Positions 16,574 to 42,545 are shown, numbered from the stretch's first letter. The stretch is 45,980 nt of DNA from a virus (IMGVR_UViG_2529292882_000016), one strand, 5' to 3'. The notes: generated by a model not told the origin, from the letters alone. A program made the numbers and translations.

Positions 16574-17133
16574 TTATGCTTCCTTTTTACCGGACGTAAC
16601 GAACGCTGCAACTCACGGGACAACAGTTCCTGCGTCCAGTGACGCCGCCGCTCAATAACGTCAGCCATAAAGTTATTACGCGGGGCCAGCCGGAAAGCCG
16701 AAGAATGGTGCTTCTTCTGCCGCTTATCCTTTTTATCCATTCCATAAGCTGAATGGCGAACGCCGTAATACAGAAATGCCGGATAATAGGGTGCGCCTTC
16801 AGGGAAACGGCGATTCCCCTGCCCGTTTTTCTGGTTAGGAGAAATTTTCACCATCAGTCCGGGGCGACGCGTCGTTTTTTTGGGAACGTAATAACCGATG
16901 GAGCGGGCCAGACGCCCGGTCTGATACCCCGGGTTCTCTCCCGGGCCAGAACGCCCGCGTTTAATCACCAGACGTCTGGCGTCACGCATGTAAACGCGCC
17001 CGATCTGCACAAATGCCCGACGCAGACGGGCGCGATTAAACTCCAGCTCCTTTGGTTGTTTAAAGTCGACGTGTAAAAATGCTGTCTGATTCATGGCATT
17101 CACCCCGTCGTCGCGCTGTACGCAGTTCTTCAC
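16570..17133 (-). CDS. Head-tail joining protein, HK97 gp10-like (187 aa)
   Basis: Basic protein downstream of head-closure genes; family assignment by synteny. Confidence 0.45.
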   Translation of the reverse strand: MKNCVQRDDGVNAMNQTAFLHVDFKQPKELEFNRARLRRAFVQIGRVYMRDARRLVIKRGRSGPGENPGYQTGRLARSIGYYVPKKTTRRPGLMVKISPNQKNGQGNRRFPEGAPYYPAFLYYGVRHSAYGMDKKDKRQKKHHSSAFRLAPRNNFMADVIERRRHWTQELLSRELQRSLRPVKRKHK

Positions 17134-30148: not shown

Positions 30149-31032
30149 GCAGCCACACCTCTGATACGAGAACGGTAGCTGGGCCAGTTGAACGACAACC
30201 AGTTGCGCCCCCCGTCTGTGATCCTGTCGGCAATGCGGGGGCTGATGAACGCCCACAACTCTTCCGGTGAAAGGTTGCTGATCAGGATGGTGGGCAGGAT
30301 ACTTTCGTACCGGGCATTGATAATTTCCTGCAAAATAGCCATTTCAGCCGCGCTGCCAAACTGAACACCAACTTCGTCGATGATCAGCAAATCCATTGAC
30401 GCATAATGCTCAATAACTTCATCCGCTGTTTTTTCGCTGTCATTCCGCCAGCAGTTTTTCACAGCACGGGTAAGGCGCATCACGTCGGTGATCTCCACGC
30501 TGGCCAGATGATTACGGATGATGTGTTTTGCCATTGATACCGCCAGATGATTTTTCCCGGTACCGCAACTGCCAGTCATAACAAGACTGGTGCCGTTCTC
30601 CAGCATATCTGGCCAGTTCTCCGCATAGCGGCGACAGGCTGCAAGATTTCTGGCTGCGTCAGGATTAACCTCCAGATAGTTATCAAACTCACAGTCCCGA
30701 AAACGCAGGGCAATTCCGGCGTTATCAGTCAGCTCTTCCGCCTTGAGGGACGACAGCTCCATGGTCAAATCGTTGGCCTCAGCGATCAAGCAGTCAGGGC
30801 AGCATGAAATTTTTTCTCTGTCCTCGCCATTGCGATCGCTCCACACCAGTATATGCGTATGGTATTTACCGTGTTTTTCGCAATACCCGCGACCTTCACG
30901 CATCAGGCAGGAACGATAAGGCCATGGCTTTTCGCCCTTCTGAGCAAATGCAATCTCTGCCCGTAACTCATCCATTCGCGCCTGTAGTCTTGTTTGTTGT
31001 TCACGCAGGTTAAACGTCATCATCGCTGTCAC
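30145..31032 (-). CDS. DnaC/IstB-like AAA+ helicase loader with N-terminal Cys/His zinc-finger-like region (295 aa)
   Basis: Walker A GSCGTGKNHL and Walker B LLIIDEVG; between O-like and DnaB-like genes. Confidence 0.75.
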   Translation of the reverse strand: MTAMMTFNLREQQTRLQARMDELRAEIAFAQKGEKPWPYRSCLMREGRGYCEKHGKYHTHILVWSDRNGEDREKISCCPDCLIAEANDLTMELSSLKAEELTDNAGIALRFRDCEFDNYLEVNPDAARNLAACRRYAENWPDMLENGTSLVMTGSCGTGKNHLAVSMAKHIIRNHLASVEITDVMRLTRAVKNCWRNDSEKTADEVIEHYASMDLLIIDEVGVQFGSAAEMAILQEIINARYESILPTILISNLSPEELWAFISPRIADRITDGGRNWLSFNWPSYRSRIRGVAA

Positions 31033-32953: not shown

Positions 32954-33044
32954 GCAAATGTTCTTGGATGTTACTGGCTTACTTCTTTTGTGAAGTTGCC
33001 TTTACTAACGTTGAGCGAGCCGGGTCACTCCCCGGCTTTTTTTT
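32954..33044 (+). ncRNA. Candidate OOP-like antisense small RNA (~90 nt)
   Basis: Promoter-like -35 TTGAAA (32917..32922), 18-bp spacer, -10 TATTTT (32941..32946), ending in terminator GCCGGG-TCACTC-CCCGGC plus T8 (33019..33044); plus strand in an intergenic gap of the minus-strand operon. Confidence 0.25.
33019..33044 (+). terminator. Rho-independent terminator (GCCGGG/CCCGGC stem plus T8) on the plus strand
   Basis: Hairpin and eight T residues read directly; no plus-strand protein gene lies upstream. Confidence 0.55.
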
Positions 33045-33793
33045 CACCGCTGCCAACCAATAACCTGAAATAACCCCATTTTCGGGTGATACCAGCGAGT
33101 CCCTCGCGGTTCTGCTTCCTCCATAACCCGATAAAAAGCAGCCATAAACGGTTCCACAGCAACAATTGCGCGACGTGATAACAATCCGTCCGGCGTCATA
33201 AACTCGTGGGTATCTGTAGGAATTTGATAGGCGTTCACCAGATTGCGGCATTTATCATCTGACAAACCGGTTTTTGCTTTCAGTTGGCGATATCCGGCAT
33301 AGCCCTCACGAATGGTACCCCTTTTGATTTGCTCAACTGTTTCGGCAACATGGCTGACTTTTTCTTCCACCTGAGTGATCCGTTTCTGCTGACGAACGGC
33401 TTCAAGAGCCATCGCAGCAACCATTTCGATTTCGCTCATTGGCTTACGGATCTGTTCTTCCAGTTCGCGCCAGCGATCTACCAGGCGAGCAGTGAATTCA
33501 GGACAGAGCTGTGCGACGACAATGATGCTGTCTCGCTTACCTTGTTCTCCTTCAAACAGGTAATGCTCATATTGAACTTTAAAACCTAAGTTATTGATTT
33601 TCTCGGAAACAGCCATTGGCGGTTTCCGGATGATGTTTTTAGCAACCAGGCGTTCGATACTACGTTTAACATCTGAGTGCTGACTACCCACCAGCTCTGC
33701 GATCTCAACGCTGGTCATGGATGCTTTATCGTTAAAAATTGCGGTGTTCACTGCCATCTCCTTACGGATAAATTCTTTTGAGATTCCGCACAT
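33044..33793 (-). CDS. Rha-family phage regulatory protein (249 aa; start uncertain)
   Basis: N-terminal MTSVEIAELVGSQHSDVKRSIERL typical of the Rha family; candidate starts at 33793 and 33757. Confidence 0.65.
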   Translation of the reverse strand: MCGISKEFIRKEMAVNTAIFNDKASMTSVEIAELVGSQHSDVKRSIERLVAKNIIRKPPMAVSEKINNLGFKVQYEHYLFEGEQGKRDSIIVVAQLCPEFTARLVDRWRELEEQIRKPMSEIEMVAAMALEAVRQQKRITQVEEKVSHVAETVEQIKRGTIREGYAGYRQLKAKTGLSDDKCRNLVNAYQIPTDTHEFMTPDGLLSRRAIVAVEPFMAAFYRVMEEAEPRGTRWYHPKMGLFQVIGWQR

Positions 33794-33870
33794 TCGTACT
33801 TGTTGGTGCCGAACCTTCCTTCCGTTATCCTTTTGATCCCTATAAACAAAAGAACCAAAGGAGGTTCGAC

Positions 33871-34326
33871 ATGAATTTAATGAACGTCTATGAAAAAATT
33901 GAGAATCACCTACTAGCTATCTATAAAATCAGCCCACACGATCGTGAGACGGGTAACTTGGTAAAATGCAGAGCAGTCAAACTAACTCAGCTTTATTTAC
34001 TTGTTTACAAACACGCCAATACCTCATTTATCAGGTCCAGCCATAAGATCTCGTTATCAGAATTGATATACACAGCAAGTGGTAAGTTAATTGCAGAACC
34101 ACAATCTGTTCCCCCAGCACTTGTTCTTCTCATCCTAAAAGAACAGCTTAATCAGCTTGCAAATGACCCCGACAATCTGCTTGTTGGAGTAGAGAACAAG
34201 CTGAAAGAATGGCTTTTTGAGCGCCTTGAATGGCACCAACAACTTTGTTCAGAGTTGCCAACTCTTCCTGAATTGCGCTGGAGTGATCTTCCGAATGAAT
34301 TATTTGGTCTGAAACAAGAAAGCTGA
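33871..34326 (+). CDS. Hypothetical AT-rich protein (151 aa), opposite orientation within the early region
   Basis: Strong RBS AAGGAGG 6 nt upstream of ATG 33871; followed by a 12-bp perfect hairpin at 34349..34380. Confidence 0.5.
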   Translation: MNLMNVYEKIENHLLAIYKISPHDRETGNLVKCRAVKLTQLYLLVYKHANTSFIRSSHKISLSELIYTASGKLIAEPQSVPPALVLLILKEQLNQLANDPDNLLVGVENKLKEWLFERLEWHQQLCSELPTLPELRWSDLPNELFGLKQES

Positions 34327-34540
34327 TTCTGGGTTCTAAATCTTTCAATACAGAGCGCAGCGAATGCTCTGCGCTCTGTAGTTTCAACAAGGTGTGTTCG
34401 GTCGCCAAACCAGCAATTTCTGCATTGTTAGCCAAGTGAATAATCCATTCACGCAGTTCACTAGGTGTAAGATCCCCTGCATTGATACATGGAGCCTTTT
34501 TCACTGCTTCATTATTACTATGCTGCATATCTCTTCCCAT
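34148..34540 (-). CDS. Hypothetical protein (130 aa) coupled to the cro-like gene; 3' half overlaps the plus-strand gene
   Basis: ATG at 34540 overlaps the stop of the upstream cro-like ORF; 179-nt antisense overlap with 33871..34326 makes its full extent doubtful. Confidence 0.3.
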   Translation of the reverse strand: MGRDMQHSNNEAVKKAPCINAGDLTPSELREWIIHLANNAEIAGLATEHTLLKLQSAEHSLRSVLKDLEPRISFLVSDQIIHSEDHSSAIQEELATLNKVVGAIQGAQKAILSACSLLQQADCRGHLQAD

Positions 34541-34749
34541 CACTTCTCATCCTCTGTGTGCGCTAAGCTTGGATGTGTATATGGAATGTTCGGATCCAGA
34601 TGGCAGAGAATGGCAACATCCTCCGGAACGCCCCGCGTTTTCCACTTTCCAACTCCCTGACTACCACGAGGCCTTCCTTTCTTTGGGAACCTGCGGCCAA
34701 TAGCGGCATTGGTCTTAAATTGAGTTTTTAATATTTCATAAAGGGTCAT
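34540..34749 (-). CDS. Cro-like small regulator (69 aa)
   Basis: First gene leftward of the divergent promoter region opposite the cI-like gene; basic; GAGG RBS. No sequence similarity to lambda Cro recognised. Confidence 0.4.
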   Translation of the reverse strand: MTLYEILKTQFKTNAAIGRRFPKKGRPRGSQGVGKWKTRGVPEDVAILCHLDPNIPYTHPSLAHTEDEK

Positions 34750-34759
34750 TCTTTAGCCT

Positions 34760-34840
34760 CACACTGGATACTCTGTTATCCAAGAATGTTAAACGCGAGA
34801 ACCCAAAGTATCAAGAAATTCTGTTACTTTAGTATCAGCA
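34760..34840. promoter_or_regulatory. Divergent promoter/operator region (OR-like) with repeated GTATC/GATAC half-sites
   Basis: GGATACTCTGTTATCC (34766..34781), AGTATCA at 34807 and 34831, TCTGTTAC at 34822; between the divergently transcribed cro-like and cI-like genes. Confidence 0.4.
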
Positions 34841-34860
34841 GCCATGAAAGGAGAAGAAAA

Positions 34861-35517
34861 ATGAAATCTTTAGGTGAACGCCTCATCAACGCACGACAAA
34901 AAGCTGGGTTAACGCAAGATGCGTTGGCTAAAAAAGCAGGGGTCACCAGAGTTGCAATCAGTAAAGCCGAGCAAGGCCTTACAAAAAGTTTCAACGGTGA
35001 CACCCTTTTTAAAGTCGCAGCTGCACTGCAGTGTTCACCGCAGTGGCTTCAGAACGGAGATGAAAAAGATAAGCATTGGGAAAATAATGTTAAGAGCTGC
35101 CCACAGAGAGACACAGCACACTCTTACCCTGTAATTAACTGGGTTCAGGCAGGATTATTCGCAACTGCTGGTGATGACTACAACATGTATGATCAGGATA
35201 ATTGGAGGCATTCTGTAAAATACGCTGGTGAGAGGGGGTTCTGGCTGGAAGTGCACGGAGACTCAATGACTTCGCCCGTAGGAATAACATTTCCTGAAGG
35301 AATGTCGATCCTTGTCAACCCAGATAAAGAAGTTTTTTCAGGGTGTTACGTCATCGCCAGAAAAAAATCTACCAATGAAGCAACATTCAAAAAATATATT
35401 TCTGAAATGGGAAAGGCGTTTCTAAAGCCCCTTAATCCACAATATCCAATCATAGAAATGGACAATGATTGCGAAATAGTAGGTGTTGTGGTTGATGCCA
35501 GGTGGGATATTTTCTGA
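34861..35517 (+). CDS. cI-type repressor, HTH plus LexA-like S24 peptidase domain (218 aa from ATG 34861)
   Basis: N-terminal HTH (LTQDALAKKAGVTRVAISKAEQG) and C-terminal S24-like region (WLEVHGDSMTSPVGITFPEGM...VIARKK...); AAGGAG RBS. Confidence 0.85.
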   Translation: MKSLGERLINARQKAGLTQDALAKKAGVTRVAISKAEQGLTKSFNGDTLFKVAAALQCSPQWLQNGDEKDKHWENNVKSCPQRDTAHSYPVINWVQAGLFATAGDDYNMYDQDNWRHSVKYAGERGFWLEVHGDSMTSPVGITFPEGMSILVNPDKEVFSGCYVIARKKSTNEATFKKYISEMGKAFLKPLNPQYPIIEMDNDCEIVGVVVDARWDIF

Positions 35518-35539
35518 CCAGACACAAAACACAAAAAGA

Positions 35540-35620
35540 AACCAAAGTATCAAAAATCACTTGCCATACCTTGATACCTTAGTTACCATGAAGCAAGGTT
35601 CGTAACTGAGGTATCATCTC
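35540..35620. promoter_or_regulatory. Second operator-like cluster (OL-like) with the same GTATC/GATAC half-sites
   Basis: AGTATCA (35546), TTGATACC (35571), GTAACTGAGGTATCA (35602..35616) immediately upstream of the early-left operon. Confidence 0.35.
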
Positions 35621-36124
35621 ATGATCAATAAAGCTACAACTCTTGACTGTCTCGAAGAACTGAAAAACCTCGGCAGCCTCATTACACTAATAGCAAAAGC
35701 AACACCAGATGCTACGCTCTCTAGCGATATAGAGTCATGCGCAGGACTGGCATGGGATATGACAAATAGCATATCCAGAAAGCTATCGTCAGCAATGCTT
35801 TTACAGAACAAAAATTCTGCAATCAACAACCGTCTTCGCACCCAACGCGAAGACTGCGGCTTAACAACAGCCGAACTCGCCAGACTGCTCGACCTCGATG
35901 AAGAAATCATCATCCAGTGGGAAAGCGGAGAGCACGAACCAACCATCAGCATGCTTATCCCTCTGGCTAATGTTCTTGGCTGTGATCCGATGTGGCTGTT
36001 AACTGGCGAGGTTACTCCTCCGGAGCAACCAAAAAGTGAGGAGCAGCAACACCATGACGCATCTCAACAAGTTTGCTCCTTATCTCGCGAAGCTCTTCTA
36101 CGGAAGAACCAATACCAATGGTGA
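35621..36124 (+). CDS. XRE-family HTH protein (167 aa)
   Basis: HTH segment LTTAELARLLDLDEEIIIQWESGEHEPTISMLIPLANVLGCDPMWLLTG; GAGGT RBS; first gene after the OL-like region. Confidence 0.6.
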   Translation: MINKATTLDCLEELKNLGSLITLIAKATPDATLSSDIESCAGLAWDMTNSISRKLSSAMLLQNKNSAINNRLRTQREDCGLTTAELARLLDLDEEIIIQWESGEHEPTISMLIPLANVLGCDPMWLLTGEVTPPEQPKSEEQQHHDASQQVCSLSREALLRKNQYQW

Positions 36125-36252
36125 CATAATCGCCGCTTCGCCCCTCAAGGTACATGCGAACATTTTTATCAATCATTGCGGAAACAGTCTCAATATGAAA
36201 ACACTTCTGAGACTCGCTATATAGCAGAACATATAAGTCAGCTGAGGAAGCC

Positions 36253-36618
36253 ATGAAAAAGTTCGAAAACATAACTGTTCTCCATGTTGATGACTTTGAT
36301 TATACAAACCCGGACCTTCTCCCGGAGGTTGTAAAGGCAATAGATGTTGCCGATATAGTGATTAGAGGAAAGAGAATTGTCAAAAACAGGCTCGCATGCA
36401 CTTCAGGAGCAATGACAGAAACAACCTCACAACAAGATGATTATGAAGGCATTTGTCTGGAGCCTGACTCATTTGCGGTAAATGTTTATCATTTATTGCA
36501 TGCAACACAGGTATTACATATGTCAAGTAATCACGAAACAAAAACACTTGGCAGCGAAATTCTGAATTTTGCATGTGAATATGCAAAAGCTGCTGCCGAA
36601 AAAGAATTAGCGCAATAA
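36253..36618 (+). CDS. Hypothetical protein (121 aa), AT-rich
   Basis: ORF only; GAGGAAG upstream of the ATG. Confidence 0.45.
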   Translation: MKKFENITVLHVDDFDYTNPDLLPEVVKAIDVADIVIRGKRIVKNRLACTSGAMTETTSQQDDYEGICLEPDSFAVNVYHLLHATQVLHMSSNHETKTLGSEILNFACEYAKAAAEKELAQ

Positions 36619-36814
36619 CAATAAATATTCCCTAAATGTTTATTACGGTTTTATCGCCGGGGATTGTTGCAACCTTTATTCGCAGGAGATTATGTTATGA
36701 CTTTCCTGAAACATAAGGCATCGTATAAAACTACCCGCCTCATTGCACAACATGGAGATTCTTATCTTCATATAGCCAGCCTGTATTTGCGCAAAGCATA
36801 TGGGAGATAAGTCA

Positions 36815-37003
36815 ATGGAAGAAAAACAACAAAACATAACACATAAAAAAGTAAGAGTGTTGCTAACCATTGAAAATGGTGAAGTAATTTACTCAAAACA
36901 TCTGTTGGATAATGAATTCGTTGGCTGCATGGATACATTTCTGTGGATGGCAAAAAGAGCGGGTTACACGATTATTCCACCAGCAAAGGAGCAAACATTA
37001 TGA
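36815..37003 (+). CDS. Hypothetical small protein (62 aa)
   Basis: GGGAGA RBS before ATG 36815; stop overlaps next ATG (ATGA). Confidence 0.4.
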   Translation: MEEKQQNITHKKVRVLLTIENGEVIYSKHLLDNEFVGCMDTFLWMAKRAGYTIIPPAKEQTL

Positions 37004-37581
37004 GTCATTCAGAGTTCCGACCAGAAGTTACGCCACATGGCATAAAAATTGGCAATACAACCATTGATTATGTTGAGGCCGTACAGCGGCTTAATGATGG
37101 TGAATACGATTATCCAAACTCACACGGTTTAAGAATCATGCAATGTATTGCTGAAGCCGATGATGCAGGGTTGCTGGGACGATTTTCAGTCGATATGAAG
37201 GTTGCTCAGTGGCGATGGCTGTATGTGACTACGTTTATAAATGAAGAGAAAGACAAGAACGGTACCGTTGATATCCCTAACGATAACGGAACTACAGATC
37301 ACGCGGTTATTTACAAGGGTAAACATGGTTGCCTGAGTATCTACCCCGGACCACTTCGTATTGCCCTGCAAAACCACGTCGAATGGGGATTTATTGAAAA
37401 ATATGGCGAAGCTGAAGGCATGGGGCGAGTTCTGTTTCTCTATCAAAAAATGCTCATCGCAGATCCTGATAATGGTTTCATTATTTCTGCTATGGGGCGC
37501 GAAGGGCTTGAACTCCTTCTGGATGAAATGATGAACGACCTGAATACTCATGGTATGCCAGAAGCGCCAGTGACACATTAA
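37000..37581 (+). CDS. Hypothetical protein (193 aa)
   Basis: AAGGAG RBS 7 nt upstream of ATG 37000; translationally coupled to the upstream small ORF. Confidence 0.5.
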   Translation: MSHSEFRPEVTPHGIKIGNTTIDYVEAVQRLNDGEYDYPNSHGLRIMQCIAEADDAGLLGRFSVDMKVAQWRWLYVTTFINEEKDKNGTVDIPNDNGTTDHAVIYKGKHGCLSIYPGPLRIALQNHVEWGFIEKYGEAEGMGRVLFLYQKMLIADPDNGFIISAMGREGLELLLDEMMNDLNTHGMPEAPVTH

Positions 37582-37757: not shown

Positions 37758-37946
37758 ATGAGACTGTATTTCACAATAGTAATTTTACTGGCAATTATCG
37801 CATGCATTTACGGATTACTCGTTCCGTTCCTTATATCTATGAAGGATACGATAGCAGTTATTTCTGGCTTTGCACTGGCGTTTCTGACCCCGCCCTGCAT
37901 TTATGCCATTTACAAGGGTCTTTCTTTCACTAAGGATAAAAGATGA
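37758..37946 (+). CDS. Small membrane protein (62 aa, two predicted transmembrane segments), coupled to the SPFH gene
   Basis: Hydrophobic sequence MRLYFTIVILLAIIACIYGLLVPFLIS...; stop overlaps the SPFH gene ATG (ATGA). Confidence 0.4.
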   Translation: MRLYFTIVILLAIIACIYGLLVPFLISMKDTIAVISGFALAFLTPPCIYAIYKGLSFTKDKR

Positions 37947-38770
37947 AAAAAATTATTTTTGCTTTAGCCATTGTTCTGCCGACTATTGGCCTTGTCGGTT
38001 GCGATCGCGTTGAACCAGGTAATGTTGGCATCAAGGTAAATAAACTGGGCGACGACAAAGGCGTCGGTGAGGTGGTCGGTGTTGGTCGCTACTGGACTGG
38101 CTGGAATACTGAAGTTTATATCTTCCCCACCTTCAAACAAATGAAGACCTACGATGAACCGTTCAGTTTCCAGATGAGTGACGGTACAACCATCGGCTAT
38201 CACATCGGTGTGGCCTACAAAGTTGATCCATCCAAAGTTACCACGGTGTTTCAGACCTACCGCAAAGGCGTGGATGACATTACCGACACTGACCTGCGCC
38301 AGAAGATCGCCGACGCACTCAACCGACTGGCCAGCAAAATGACCACCGACAAATTTATCGATGGCGGGAAGTCTGAACTACTGGATGCAGCTCTTAAAGA
38401 CATTCAGGAGGAAATGACACCCATCGGTATTCAGGTAATGAGCCTCTCATATGTAGGTAAGCCGGAGTACCCGTCAACCGTTATCGACAGCATTAATGCC
38501 AAAGTCACGGCGAACCAGAAAACACTGCAGCGCGAGCAGGAAGTAAAACAGCGCGAAGCGGAAGCCAATATGTTGCGCGCAGAAGCTGCCGGACAGGCTG
38601 ATGCGATTCGCACAAAAGCCCAGGCCGAAGCTGATGCTATTCGTTTACGCGGTGAAGCTCTGCGCCAGAACCCCGGCGTTATGGAGCTGGAAGCCATCAA
38701 TAAATGGAACGGCACACTGCCGCAATACATGACCAGCGGTGCTAATACACCATTTATCCAGGTTAAATAA
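37943..38770 (+). CDS. SPFH/band-7 (prohibitin/stomatin-like) domain lipoprotein (275 aa)
   Basis: Signal peptide with lipobox LVGC; central SPFH-like region and Ala/Glu-rich coiled-coil tail (EAEANMLRAEAAGQADAIRTKAQAEADAIRLRGEALRQNPGVMELEAINKWNG). Confidence 0.75.
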   Translation: MKKIIFALAIVLPTIGLVGCDRVEPGNVGIKVNKLGDDKGVGEVVGVGRYWTGWNTEVYIFPTFKQMKTYDEPFSFQMSDGTTIGYHIGVAYKVDPSKVTTVFQTYRKGVDDITDTDLRQKIADALNRLASKMTTDKFIDGGKSELLDAALKDIQEEMTPIGIQVMSLSYVGKPEYPSTVIDSINAKVTANQKTLQREQEVKQREAEANMLRAEAAGQADAIRTKAQAEADAIRLRGEALRQNPGVMELEAINKWNGTLPQYMTSGANTPFIQVK

Positions 38771-38804
38771 CTTATACGCCCGGCAGGCCGCCGGGCTAAG
38801 GGAA

Positions 38805-39170
38805 ATGCAAATGAACACCCAGAATACTCAACCGCAAATAATGAACTATGACCCGAATCTGACGTCATGCGGACGCATGGCAAAACAAACCGTTCGATTA
38901 ACTTTCGGGCTATGGGAATACCGCGAAACATTCGAAGTTACTGTCGGCGGCAATCTGACCGGACTGGATGTTATCAGTTGCGCTATTGAAAGCCTGTACG
39001 CAACGCTGCCTTATGAAGAAGTCGAGGATGAGCGCGATATCATAGCCACCATTAATATCGGCGGACTGGAATGCAAGGATGAAAACCTGTCCGGAGAGCT
39101 CTGGCTTGCCGGAATGCTTATCTCAGCAGAAATTATCAGCATTGAACCCGCTACAAACATACGACTCTGA
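38805..39170 (+). CDS. Hypothetical protein (121 aa)
   Basis: ORF with AGGGA upstream of ATG 38805; preceded by a GC-rich intercistronic hairpin (GCCCGGC...GCCGGGC). Confidence 0.45.
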   Translation: MQMNTQNTQPQIMNYDPNLTSCGRMAKQTVRLTFGLWEYRETFEVTVGGNLTGLDVISCAIESLYATLPYEEVEDERDIIATINIGGLECKDENLSGELWLAGMLISAEIISIEPATNIRL

Positions 39171-39201
39171 AGTTCTCACTATTCAGAGAACAGGAGAAAA
39201 A

Positions 39202-39444
39202 ATGTTCGCTTTGATTAATCAGGGACAACTGTATACCGACAGTGCCGGTTACCCGATAAAAATTATTCGCTGCATAAATAACACTGTGTTGTACAGAAGA
39301 ATGGATGGGCAAATGCAGTCGATAAAAATAAACGATTTTAATGGACTGTTTGAACGGATCGATCACCAGGAATACCGACAAATTCTGGCAGAAACAGAGC
39401 AGGAAGCTCATCTGAAAAAATTACGGGCCATGAAAAGGAAGTAA
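39202..39444 (+). CDS. Hypothetical protein (80 aa)
   Basis: AGGAG RBS upstream of ATG 39202. Confidence 0.45.
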   Translation: MFALINQGQLYTDSAGYPIKIIRCINNTVLYRRMDGQMQSIKINDFNGLFERIDHQEYRQILAETEQEAHLKKLRAMKRK

Positions 39445-39447
39445 AGA

Positions 39448-39594
39448 ATGAATAAAGCCTTTGAGCTATGGGTGCGCCAGCGTTACGGCAATCGCTATGA
39501 CCTGACGCGAGATGTTGACGGTTTCTACTGCCGTGAAATTGTGAAACGAATGTTTGAAGTGTGGTGCCACTGCCGTGGGCTGAATGTTGTATGA
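39448..39594 (+). CDS. Hypothetical small protein (48 aa)
   Basis: AAGGAAG RBS; ORF MNKAFELWVRQRYGNRYDLTRDVDGFYCREIVKRMFEVWCHCRGLNVV; below the ORF-track size cut-off. Confidence 0.3.
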   Translation: MNKAFELWVRQRYGNRYDLTRDVDGFYCREIVKRMFEVWCHCRGLNVV

Positions 39595-39602
39595 GGTGAA
39601 CT

Positions 39603-39812
39603 GTGGGGCTGGATTGCGTACCTATATCAACCTACTGCCGCAACGCAGGAGAAACGGTTGATGCCGTTAACAAACGGATACAAAGAGGAATATGGAAAGA
39701 AGGGGTACATGTATTAAAAGTCGACGGAGTTAAAGAACGTTGGGTCGACTTAATGGAGATTACAAAATGGGCAAGAAAGAACAAGGATCACTATCTCTCC
39801 CTAGAGGAGTAA
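39603..39812 (+). CDS. xis: Excisionase-like protein (69 aa; GTG start assumed)
   Basis: Small basic protein immediately upstream of and overlapping int, as in lambda xis-int; winged-helix-like composition. Confidence 0.5.
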   Translation: MGLDCVPISTYCRNAGETVDAVNKRIQRGIWKEGVHVLKVDGVKERWVDLMEITKWARKNKDHYLSLEE

Positions 39813-40939
39813 CTATTCGCCAGCATAAAACTGGTAGCACTCTGGTTATCACTTTTACATATAAAGGGGTTCTGTGTCGGGAGCCCCTCTCCAGAATGGA
39901 AGTAAACGCGCGCGGTGTGAAGTACGCTGAGCGTCTGCTGGGAGAAATAAAAAATCAGATTATCGATGGTACCTTCGAATATGCAAAATACTTCCCCAAC
40001 TCCCAAAAGCTGGAGTTGTTCGGGGGAGTGAAAAAAAACAAAAATATAAAATCTTACCTGGATGAATACCTGATTATCTGCCAGAACCGTAACCTGTCAC
40101 CATCGACAATTAGAGGTTATGAAAAATGCCTGTCGGCGCTGTCAGCATTGCATAAATTTCATGTATCAGAACTGACACCTGCAGTACTAAAAAACTGGAT
40201 CGCCAGCAGAAAAACAAAACTGAAAACTATCCGCAATAATCTTTCATTCTTGCGCAGCGCCATAGATGAAGCGGTGACCGATGGTTTGTTAACAATAAAT
40301 CCTGTCACGCTAGTCAGCGCCAGCCGGTATCACGTATTGGACAACACACCAGGCAGTGATGATTACGAGGTCGATCCTTTTACACCAGCGGAGACGGCAG
40401 CAATCTATGACGCCTGTCATTACCCGGAATGGCGAAATCTGTTTCGCTTTGCCTTTAATACAGGACTGCGCAGCTCAGAATTGTGCGCGTTGCGCTGGAC
40501 GGATATAGACTTTATCGGCAACACCGCGCATGTTCAGACTGCAAGCGTAGTCGGGGTAATCAAAAGCACCAAAACAAAAGCCGGCACCCGCAAAGTGCAA
40601 CTGAACAGCGAAGCGCTGGCGGCTCTTCAGGCACAAAAGCCCTACACGGCGCTAAAGAGCGACTTCATATTCAGCGATCCGAAAACTCGCGCTCCTTGGG
40701 CAAACGCAGATGCGATCCGAAAAAAAGCCTGGGTACCAACCCTTAAAAAAGCTGGTGTACGCTATCGCAATCCGTACCAGACACGCCACACGTTCGCCAC
40801 TCGGCACATTAGCCAGGGCGTTAACCTGTTCTGGCTTGCTGGTCAGATGGGGCATAAAGGACCGGAAATGCTGTTCAGACATTACGGCTCTTACCTTGCA
40901 GAATACGATGGAAAAACGGCGATTTCTGCAACCCCGTAA
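39767..40939 (+). CDS. int: Tyrosine integrase, lambda Int-like (390 aa from ATG 39767)
   Basis: C-terminal catalytic region with RHTFATRHISQG...RHYGSYL (R/H/R/Y-type motifs); transcribed toward the att repeat at 41072. Confidence 0.85.
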   Translation: MGKKEQGSLSLPRGVTIRQHKTGSTLVITFTYKGVLCREPLSRMEVNARGVKYAERLLGEIKNQIIDGTFEYAKYFPNSQKLELFGGVKKNKNIKSYLDEYLIICQNRNLSPSTIRGYEKCLSALSALHKFHVSELTPAVLKNWIASRKTKLKTIRNNLSFLRSAIDEAVTDGLLTINPVTLVSASRYHVLDNTPGSDDYEVDPFTPAETAAIYDACHYPEWRNLFRFAFNTGLRSSELCALRWTDIDFIGNTAHVQTASVVGVIKSTKTKAGTRKVQLNSEALAALQAQKPYTALKSDFIFSDPKTRAPWANADAIRKKAWVPTLKKAGVRYRNPYQTRHTFATRHISQGVNLFWLAGQMGHKGPEMLFRHYGSYLAEYDGKTAISATP

Positions 40940-41071
40940 CGGCAAAATATTTCAAAATGTTGTACAGAATCAGGACGTTACCGGGACAACAATATGTACG
41001 TAAAATGCACATAATTCATTGTTTGAAAAAATAAATCGTTCATATTCAATAAATTGGATTAATCACGATCA

Positions 41072-41098
41072 CGGGTTCAACTCCCGCCAGCTCCACCA
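41072..41098. repeat. Second copy of the 27-bp att direct repeat (displaced ssrA 3' end)
   Basis: Identical to 1034..1060; the downstream flank (AAATTCTCCATCGGTGATTACC...) carries a terminator hairpin and is then followed by a P4-type integrase, as at the chromosomal ssrA locus. Confidence 0.85.
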
Positions 41099-41145
41099 AA
41101 ATTCTCCATCGGTGATTACCAGAGTCATCCGATGAAGTCCTAAGA

Positions 41146-41178
41146 GCCCGCACGGCGCAAGCCCTGCGGGCTTTTTTG
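41146..41178 (+). terminator. Rho-independent terminator (probable original ssrA terminator)
   Basis: GCCCGCA...TGCGGGC stem followed by TTTTTTGTG. Confidence 0.6.
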
Positions 41179-41303
41179 TGCCCTCAATTTGTCCCGCGAA
41201 GTCCGAAGAAAACTAATTAAATCCGATCCTTTTAGGCACCTTGTTAGGCACCTCATAAAGCTTTATTGTTTTTTGAGGTGCCTAAAACTATGGAAACCCG
41301 GCA

Positions 41304-42545
41304 ATGGCAAGACAAACCAAACCTCTATCCGTTAAAGAAATAGAATCAGCCAAACCCAAGGAGGCGGACTACGTTCTCTATGATGGCGATGGCCTTGAGC
41401 TACTCATTAAATCCAGCGGGAGTAAAATCTGGCAGTTTCGCTACATTCGCCCTGTCACCAAGAAACGAGCAAAGAAGAGCATAGGCTCCTACCCGTCAGT
41501 TACCCTTGCCGATGCCAGAAACTACCGTGCAGAGTCCCGCTCACTACTGGCTAAACAGATCGATCCGCAGGAACATCAGCAAGAACAATTGCGCAGTTCG
41601 CTGGAAGCCAAAACCAACACTTTCCAACTCGTAGCTGAACGTTGGTGGAATGTGAAGAAAGCCAGTGTGACAGAGGACTATGCGGAAGATATCTGGCGCT
41701 CTCTTGAAAGAGACGTCTTTCCTGCGATTGGCGACGTTAGCGTTACAGATATTAAAGCTCATACACTGGTTCAGGCCGTACAACCGGTTCAGGCCAGAGG
41801 AGCACTGGAAACTGTTCGTCGCCTGTGCCAACGTATTAATGAGGTCATGATCTATGCCCAGAACACAGGGCTGATTGATGCTGTTCCCAGCGTTAATATC
41901 GGTAAAGCCTTCGAGAAGCCTCAGAAAAAGAACATGCCCAGCATTCGACCGGATCAGCTACCTCAGTTAATGCAGACGATGCGAACAGCCAGCATTAGCC
42001 TTTCCACACGCTGCCTGTTCATGTGGCAACTTCTTACTATTACCCGCCCTGCCGAAGCGGCTGAAGCTCTCTGGGAAGAGGTAGACATAGAAGCGCGAGA
42101 GTGGAAGATTCCTGCAGCACGCATGAAAATGAACCGCGACCATACTGTTCCATTGTCAGATGAAGCAATTGCGATACTAGAGATGATGAAGCCGTTAAGT
42201 GGAAATCGAGAATTTATCTTTCCCAGCCGCATCAAGCCAAACCAGCCGATGAACAGTCAGACCGTAAACGCATCGCTAAAACGCGCAGGTTTTGGTGGGG
42301 TGCTCGTTTCACACGGCCTGCGATCTATCGCCAGTACAGCCCTTAATGAGCAGGGATTTCCACCTGATGTTATTGAGGCTGCACTTGCTCATGTGGATAA
42401 GAATGAGGTTCGTCGTGCGTATAACCGTAGTGATTATCTTGAGCAGCGACGGCCTATGATGCAGTGGTGGGCTGATTTTGTGATGGCTGCAGATCACGGT
42501 AGTATGATTGAAGGAGGGATAAAGGCAATGCGGTTAGTTGGATGA
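41304..42545 (+). CDS. intA: P4-type tyrosine integrase, CP4-57 IntA-like (413 aa)
   Basis: N-terminus MARQTKPLSVKEIESAKPKEADYVLYDGDGLELLIKSSGSKIWQFRY and C-terminus ...HVDKNEVRRAYNRSDYLEQRRPMMQWWADF typical of P4-family integrases; about 200 bp after the ssrA 3' end. Confidence 0.85.
   Translation: MARQTKPLSVKEIESAKPKEADYVLYDGDGLELLIKSSGSKIWQFRYIRPVTKKRAKKSIGSYPSVTLADARNYRAESRSLLAKQIDPQEHQQEQLRSSLEAKTNTFQLVAERWWNVKKASVTEDYAEDIWRSLERDVFPAIGDVSVTDIKAHTLVQAVQPVQARGALETVRRLCQRINEVMIYAQNTGLIDAVPSVNIGKAFEKPQKKNMPSIRPDQLPQLMQTMRTASISLSTRCLFMWQLLTITRPAEAAEALWEEVDIEAREWKIPAARMKMNRDHTVPLSDEAIAILEMMKPLSGNREFIFPSRIKPNQPMNSQTVNASLKRAGFGGVLVSHGLRSIASTALNEQGFPPDVIEAALAHVDKNEVRRAYNRSDYLEQRRPMMQWWADFVMAADHGSMIEGGIKAMRLVG

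Follow-up and report, generated by a model that had tools for sequence, protein, structure and literature searches.

We analysed a stretch of viral DNA of 45,980 bp (IMGVR_UViG_2529292882_000016; the window, below, always means this whole stretch) with regard to two clusters of similar repeats that flank a cI-type repressor gene. Positions 34540-36124 carry the immunity region of a phiP27-type Escherichia coli prophage. At the DNA level it shares 96% identity with the Shiga toxin (Stx) 2e phage phiP27, where it corresponds to the genes L10-L12, and about 84% with a number of Stx1a- and Stx2a-converting phages. Three genes are of interest here: a cro-like gene of 69 codons (34540..34749, minus strand), which is the first gene of the operon read from the rightward promoter PR; the cI repressor gene (34861..35517, plus strand, 218 amino acids), whose product carries the domains HTH_3 and Peptidase_S24; and the first gene of the operon read from the leftward promoter PL (35621..36124, plus strand, 167 amino acids), which encodes a DicA-like protein with a C-terminal HTH_3 domain. 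Three operator-like sites lie between the cro-like gene and cI and three more downstream of cI. Motif statistics, promoter positions and comparison with related prophages indicate that these six sites are very probably the cI operators of an ordinary lysogenic switch of the lambda/P22 class.

Six operator-like sites and predicted promoters

An earlier note on this DNA had quoted several strings from the two intergenic regions, all of which were found at their places: GGATACTCTGTTATCC at 34766, TCTGTTAC at 34820, TTGATACC at 35571, GTAACTGAGGTATCA at 35602 and AGTATCA at 34807, 34831 and 35546. Read in register, the strings form six 16-bp quasi-palindromes with the consensus TGATAC-N4-GTATCA (14-bp core GATAC-N4-GTATC). 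The note had taken AGTATCA as the half-site unit. The shared motif is real, but the unit is the 16-bp palindrome rather than a 7-mer, and each cluster contains three of them. The symmetry of the sites is 6-4-6, with conserved half-sites and varying centres (CAAA, TTTA, CTTA, TGAG and TCTG). About one turn of the helix separates the centres of the half-sites, so that the spacing, named in the note as a point on which its proposal could fail, is compatible with binding of a dimer.

The hexamer GTATCA/TGATAC occurs five times in the 214 intergenic bases, whereas its frequency in the remainder of the window predicts 0.14 occurrences (Poisson P=4e-7). For the dyad GATAC-N4-GTATC with at most two mismatches the values are 6 and 0.065 (P=1e-10), and only 20 matches were found in the entire window, the six operators included. 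As the dyad had been defined after viewing the data, three checks for circularity were applied: enumeration of dyads, leave-one-out matrices and cross-cluster matrices. Among 11,264 palindromic 5-mer dyads with gaps of 0-10, GATAC-N4-GTATC ranked first by four orders of magnitude (Bonferroni-corrected P about 1e-6), and the runners-up were shifted forms of it. With leave-one-out matrices the six sites ranked 1, 1, 1, 1, 3 and 8 among the 45,965 positions of the window. A matrix trained on the sites of the right operator (OR) placed those of the left operator (OL) at ranks 1, 2 and 8, and a matrix trained on OL placed the OR sites at ranks 1, 2 and 9. These ranks bear out that the same half-site is common to both clusters. 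Matrix scores of the six operators ranged from 14.1 to 19.7, whereas the next-best positions elsewhere in the window did not exceed 11.4.

The repeats might alternatively be a functionless chance cluster of an A+T-rich hexamer, as intergenic DNA is generally rich in A+T. Nothing beyond this general richness favours such an explanation, which we regard as hardly credible. It was rejected on the motif statistics, i.e. the P value and first rank of the dyad and the cross-cluster ranks of 1, 2 and 8-9, and the spacing of the operators is moreover unchanged over six genera (see below).

Additional operators elsewhere in the prophage were considered. The candidates at 16922, 37327, 29420, 43392 and 30297 are located inside coding regions, score at most 11.4 and were treated as chance matches. 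The one at 30297-30312, GGATACTTTCGTACCG, is a lone copy of the dyad with one mismatch (matrix score 10.2) in the DnaC-like gene and probably also due to chance. LexA boxes have the consensus CTGT-N8-ACAG, and by eye the operators do not resemble it. A search of 33000-37500 against Rfam gave no match at E values up to 1.

A scan for consensus promoters gave a single promoter-like site of the sigma-70 type per cluster, both in the expected direction. PR (34786..34814, minus strand) consists of the -35 hexamer TTGATA (34814-34809), a 17-bp spacer and the -10 hexamer TAACAT (34791-34786). PL (35561..35589, plus strand) consists of TTGCCA (35561-35566), a 17-bp spacer and TACCAT (35584-35589). PR faces the cro-like gene; PL is on the same strand as cI and reads away from it, as in lambda. 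Counterparts of both promoters were found at the corresponding place in each of the 11 lineages examined, those of PR having the form TTGNNN-17/18-TANNNT. Lineages are assigned below to three specificity classes by their half-sites. TTGNNN-17-TACNNT with OL-2 in the spacer was found in nine of nine class-1 lineages and in the one class-3 lineage tested.

In the right cluster OR-a (GGATACTCTGTTATCC, 34766..34781) covers the start region of PR, and OR-b (AGAACCCAAAGTATCA, 34798..34813), whose left half is degenerate (3/5), overlaps the PR -35 hexamer. OR-c (TGTTACTTTAGTATCA, 34822..34837) has the highest score of all sites and overlaps the proposed promoter of cI. In the left cluster OL-1 (AGAAACCAAAGTATCA, 35537..35552) is located just upstream of the PL -35 hexamer and is a 20-nt direct repeat of OR-b with 90% identity. 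OL-2 (TGATACCTTAGTTACC, 35572..35587) occupies the spacer and -10 hexamer of PL. The right half of OL-2, GTTAC, supplies the TAC of this -10 hexamer, which explains why the half-site appears imperfect. OL-3 (CGTAACTGAGGTATCA, 35601..35616) extends from about +6 to +21 of PL and includes the Shine-Dalgarno sequence GAGG (35608-35611) of the next gene.

For cI itself, the consensus scan revealed no intergenic candidate for a plus-strand -35/-10 promoter at 9 of 12 matches. The left half and centre of OR-c contain an extended -10 element, TGTTACTTT (TGnTAnnnT; 34822..34830, plus strand). The string TCTGTTAC mentioned above comprises the left half of this cI-proximal site and the TG of the element. 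All 15 lineages compared, which represent the three specificity classes, have TGnTAnnnT in this position on the strand of cI: the element is 13 nt away from the PR -35 hexamer and precedes the ATG of cI by 23-37 nt, with about 0.1 occurrences expected per region by chance. This sequence pattern makes the extended -10 element likely to be PRM, the maintenance promoter of cI. TAGTAT (34830-34835) was also considered as its -10 hexamer; the A2 of this hexamer is not conserved in the relatives L002 and L003, and the extended -10 was preferred. Transcription is predicted to start near 34779 (PR, minus strand), 34837 (PRM, plus strand) and 35596 (PL, plus strand). The predicted PR and PRM starts are separated by only about 58 bp, so that polymerases at the two promoters would probably be mutually exclusive.

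The arrangement is that of a lambdoid immunity region: a cro-like gene divergent from cI, with about 100 bp of control region in between, three 16-bp OR sites overlapping PR and the predicted PRM, and a second cluster with three sites around TTGCCA-17-TACCAT reading away from cI.

Repressor specificity and co-variation of the operators

The repressor matched the Pfam models HTH_3 (E=1e-14) and Peptidase_S24 (E=1e-22) and, over its full length, lambda cI (3bdn, E=2e-33). The N-terminal domain matched P22 c2 (E=3e-9), 434 Cro (E=8e-9) and the 434 repressor (E=1.5e-4). An Ala-Gly pair (in VQAGLF), a Ser (in GDSMTSP) and a Lys (in TFKKY) align with the cleavage site and catalytic residues of lambda cI, which we take to be A111-G112, S149 and K192. 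Judged from these alignments, cI is a P22 c2-like helix-turn-helix domain fused to a lambda-cI-like domain predicted to cleave itself. It shares about 46% identity with the repressors encoded by the loci L108-L113, which have operators of the type ATTTAAG-N4-CTTAAAT and presumably represent P22 c2-like systems. The 69-residue product of the cro-like gene matched no sequence family; its predicted fold is closest to Cro proteins. The earlier note had called a cI-type gene and a divergent cro-like gene, and both calls were correct, the first by the two Pfam domains and the second by the predicted fold. The Cro-like family comprises 42 clusters, all annotated as 'hypothetical', with no Pfam model and with a predicted Cro fold.

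In close relatives (25 haplotypes for the right and 29 for the left cluster) only 8 of 30 and 4 of 30 half-site columns are variable, compared to 51 of 81 and 52 of 73 of the other intergenic columns. The block CCAAAGTATCAAG at OR-b is invariant among the 25 haplotypes, and OL-2 is invariant in 27 of the 29. Perfect palindromes, absent from the window itself, occur in relatives: in the related Stx2a phage L002, OR-a is a perfect core palindrome (GATACTTAAGTATC); OL-1 is a perfect palindrome (AGATACTTTAGTATCA) in the relative L105.

More distant loci were reached independently, either via the Cro-like protein family or via distant relatives of cI. The recognition helix (V/I)(T/S)RVAISKAE(Q/L)GLTK is present in nine lineages from Escherichia, Klebsiella, Providencia, Photorhabdus, Salmonella and Yersinia. 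In the prophages of the latter five genera, cI exhibits only 62-74% identity to the repressor of the window, and the helix is kept. The DNA around the operators is no longer alignable in these lineages. Each of them nevertheless has exactly three OR sites with centre-to-centre distances of 32 and 24 bp, and two or three OL sites spaced by 34-36 and 24-29 bp. The distances from OR-a to OR-b (32 bp) and from OR-b to OR-c (24 bp) were each found in 10 of 10 class-1 lineages. OL-3 is absent in L120, L125, L126 and L130.

Lineages with a changed helix have changed half-sites. The repressors of class 2 (L127, L128, L129 and L131) carry the helix VSRVTISKIELGDSQD, and both of their clusters consist of half-sites of the CGAAAC type. 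In the Serratia lineage L107 the helix is VSRMAISKIEMGLTQ, and perfect palindromes of the type TAAAC-N4-GTTTA are found on either side of cI, i.e. in both clusters. The 5-4-5 geometry and the spacing of 32 and 24 bp are retained in the lineages with changed helices (spacings of L107 and L127 counted by eye on the alignment). Taken over 11 lineages besides that of the window, the half-sites of both clusters switch together with the recognition helix of cI and are unchanged where the helix is kept, despite divergence of the DNA around them. This co-variation in both clusters is the best available evidence for cI as their reader, and on these sequence comparisons the reading of both operator clusters by cI is supported. 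The earlier note had suggested a layout like OR and OL of lambda, in which a single repressor controls both early promoters; the shared motif, the promoters and the co-variation all fit this suggestion.

Alternatively it might be that the operators are read by the Cro-like protein or by the 167-residue DicA-like protein and not by cI. The latter carries an HTH_3 domain, and in switches of the lambda type Cro binds the same operators, so that shared use by the Cro-like protein is to be expected. The half-site follows the cI helix, however, and not that of the Cro-like protein: the putative recognition helix of the latter (SQGVGKWKxRG) is nearly invariant in the homologues of L107 and L120-L131, which span the GATAC, CGAAAC and TAAAC half-site classes. 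As regards the 167-residue protein, the operators are kept in L120, L124-L126 and L130, in which no match to a helix-turn-helix family is recorded for the gene after OL, and its helix-turn-helix part is 96% shared with phages that have no DNA match to this cI or to these operators. On these two grounds the DicA-like protein was rejected as their reader. Both variants together appear very unlikely, and we retain cI as the protein reading the six sites. The constancy of the Cro-like helix despite three operator specificities suggests that Cro proteins of this family may have a target different from the half-sites of cI.

The inverted repeat of OL-2 and OL-3

OL-2 and OL-3 form an inverted repeat (35572..35616, plus strand) with 15-nt arms that are 93% complementary. 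Compared by eye, the two sites match at 14 of 16 positions in inverted and at 6 of 16 in direct orientation. For RNA reading through this region a 15-bp hairpin is predicted (minimum free energy -22.9 kcal/mol, z=-5.0), in which the Shine-Dalgarno sequence GAGG of gene 35621 is fully paired. RNA starting at PL does not form it (minimum free energy -5.6, z=+1.8): the PL -10 hexamer extends from the 3' end of the 5' arm into the loop, in which transcription is predicted to start. The scan for promoters and terminators found no intrinsic terminator between cI and PL. The hairpin itself was considered as a terminator and dismissed for lack of a U-run. Without a terminator after cI the PRM transcript would read through PL, letting the two arms pair.

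Of 15 lineages compared, eight lack a terminator after cI, and every one of them has a hairpin pairing the Shine-Dalgarno sequence (z -3.8 to -6.9); four of these belong to class 2 and have different stem sequences. All seven lineages with a terminator after cI lack the hairpin (z -1.7 to +0.4). Additional loci beyond these lineages exhibit the same split. The hairpin group comprises L002, L003, L105, L127-L129 and L131-L137, the terminator group L107, L120, L122, L124-L126, L130 and L143-L153. The stem is kept in 24 of 24 unique haplotypes without a terminator, and its irregularities are mostly U.G pairs on the sense strand. As a test for selection on RNA, the asymmetry between G.U and A.C is suggestive rather than decisive, as two haplotypes have C.A mismatches.

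These data raise the possibility that the repeat is an RNA element, besides or even in place of its function as an operator pair, which masks the Shine-Dalgarno sequence of gene 35621 in cI read-through RNA. Stability of the hairpin with paired GAGG in the long RNA, its absence from RNA initiated at PL, the lack of a terminator-like site between cI and PL, and the restriction of hairpins to lineages without a terminator (8 of 8 compared to 0 of 7), with stems kept and differing in class 2, are all in favour of this. On the other hand, quasi-palindromic operators in mirrored orientation yield an RNA hairpin automatically, so that selection may act on the DNA alone. Furthermore, the lineages bearing the hairpin fall into about two clades, which reduces the split of eight versus seven to few independent events; the two haplotypes with C.A mismatches in the stem also have to be considered, and PRM transcripts would have to reach OL-2/OL-3. 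We therefore put forward only tentatively, and as somewhat less probable than a role as DNA sites alone, that OL-2 and OL-3 have a double duty as repressor sites in the DNA and as an RNA hairpin keeping the cI read-through mRNA from expressing the PL operon. In the long RNA the masked Shine-Dalgarno sequence would block translation of gene 35621 and the RNA would probably be exposed to Rho, whereas transcripts initiated at PL, starting between the arms, would be translated. In related phages the intrinsic terminator after cI would do the job of the hairpin instead.

The putative switch, its surroundings and known systems

In the switch that we propose, dimers of cI would bind the six quasi-palindromic operators, with the centres of the half-sites spaced by about one helical turn and the four central base pairs probably read indirectly. 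Occupancy of OR-a and OR-b would silence the cro-like gene and the replication operon transcribed from PR. Occupancy of OR-c would shut off cI synthesis, either by autoregulation or as a target of Cro. Binding to OL-2 in the spacer and -10 hexamer of PL, with OL-1 flanking upstream and OL-3 downstream, would silence the operon up to the integrase. RecA-stimulated self-cleavage at the Ala-Gly pair would part the DNA-binding and oligomerisation domains and release both promoters. Cooperativity between the sites spaced by 24 bp, an order in which the sites are filled and looping between OR and OL over 715 bp may be assumed in addition.

Several points weigh against this interpretation. Conservation of OR-b, which has only one good half-site, could stem from the PR -35 hexamer inside it. 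The sequence of OL-3 may reflect constraints from the hairpin or from the Shine-Dalgarno sequence instead of repressor binding, and the site is missing in several relatives. The best-scoring site, OR-c, overlaps the proposed promoter of cI, the reverse of the affinity order in lambda, although matrix scores derived from six sites are not a measure of affinity. For PRM no -35 hexamer can be recognised, and its start is a prediction only. Finally, in the searchable literature we found no description of phiP27-type operators or promoters and no binding, footprint or transcript data for them; the phiP27 genome paper of 2002 was outside this scope and might mention them.

Beyond the switch, the minus strand past the cro-like gene, i.e. 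the PR side, carries Rha/Ant-like genes followed by genes for DnaD-like, DnaC-like and DnaB proteins. On the other side the PL operon extends on the plus strand to genes for an SPFH protein and integrases at 37943-42545. The gene order, cro, OR, cI, OL/PL and early-left genes with int last, is thereby the same as in lambda. At the end of the leftward operon two tyrosine-recombinase genes are arranged in tandem (39740-40939 and 41304-42545, plus strand). These integrases differ in their arm-binding domains (Arm-DNA-bind_2 and Arm-DNA-bind_3), and one of the genes may come from a neighbouring element.

The first gene of the PL operon differs in length between the phages: its product has 138 amino acids in phiP27, 167 in the window and 215-216 in Stx phages. 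It resembles a fusion, the N-terminal part being similar, by eye, to a small stand-alone protein encoded after OL in L120. The DicA-like HTH_3 part and the downstream DNA are 96% identical to the phages PhiR49_2 and phi467, in which cI and the operators of the window have no DNA match. This indicates a mosaic joint inside gene 35621-36124, near 35834. An open reading frame of 86 codons (36012-36272, minus strand) overlaps the 3' end of this gene; it matches phrog_6104, a phage family of unknown function (E=1e-49), and is the counterpart of phiP27 L09. At the other border, phiP27 and nearly all relatives from E. coli lose similarity just downstream of the cro-like gene, at about 34300-34540 (with 34300-36300 as query, matches started at query position 238-254). 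In this segment a minus-strand reading frame (34148-34543, phrog_37051) overlaps a plus-strand reading frame (33778-34326) that has no family match.

The phiP27-type immunity region was detected in 333 of 5,426 complete E. coli genomes; that of E. coli SE11 is 97.7% identical. As it is this common and occurs in the Stx2e phage phiP27 as well as in Stx1a and Stx2a phages, the switch would govern prophage induction and toxin release in some pathogenic strains. With the operator consensus, the three predicted promoters and the specificity classes, immunity groups should be predictable from sequence, and reporter experiments and electrophoretic mobility shift assays can be designed. The TGATAC, CGAAAC and TAAAC half-sites with their matched recognition helices are candidates for orthogonal repressor/operator pairs. 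The switch itself holds no surprise with respect to the lambda/P22 paradigm; the alternation of hairpin and terminator is the only part that is possibly new biology.

The immC region of P22 resembles the region described here in the c2-homologous N-terminal domain of the repressor and in the clusters of several sites, OR and OL, flanking the repressor gene. The operators appear to have the same form, an outer half-site, four central base pairs and a second outer half-site. In P22 the c2 repressor contacts the outer half-sites and leaves the central four base pairs non-contacted (PMC4267663). Differences concern the half-site (ATTTAAG in P22, TGATAC here), the length of the operator (18 and 16 bp, respectively) and the recognition helix, which is TRVAISKAEQ here. 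Furthermore, the cro-like gene of the window belongs to a family without a Pfam model, the first gene of the PL operon encodes a helix-turn-helix protein, and no antiterminator homologue was recognised.

With lambda the region shares the homology of cI including the Ala-Gly, Ser and Lys residues, the layout cro-OR-cI-OL/PL and a set of three sites in either cluster. The distance of 24 bp within one pair of OR sites is also that between OR1 and OR2 of lambda. In contrast to lambda, neither rexAB nor a terminator is present between cI and PL, and the distance between OR and OL is about 715 bp instead of about 2.4 kb. Unlike in lambda, PRM is apparently of the extended -10 type and contained in the operator next to cI. 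A repressor bound at OR-b would be located at about -32 of PRM and not at -42, so that activation in the manner of lambda is not implied.

The Stx phages 933W and H-19B, whose switches have been characterised by experiment, are comparable in the type of switch and in the medical setting, phiP27-type immunity being found in Stx1a and Stx2a phages, too. The number of operators varies among such phages, 933W having three OR and two OL sites and H-19B four OR sites (PMC8065619). Both differ from the window in the specificity of the repressor and in the operator sequence.

For the putative hairpin the closest likeness is to the T4 lysozyme gene e and to I-TevI. In these the long transcript pairs the Shine-Dalgarno sequence, and an internal promoter gives rise to an open, translatable mRNA. 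The region described here would share with them a stable hairpin pairing the Shine-Dalgarno sequence in a long transcript and an internal promoter predicted to start within it. It would differ in that the arms of the hairpin double as operators and that the long transcript is the mRNA of the repressor.

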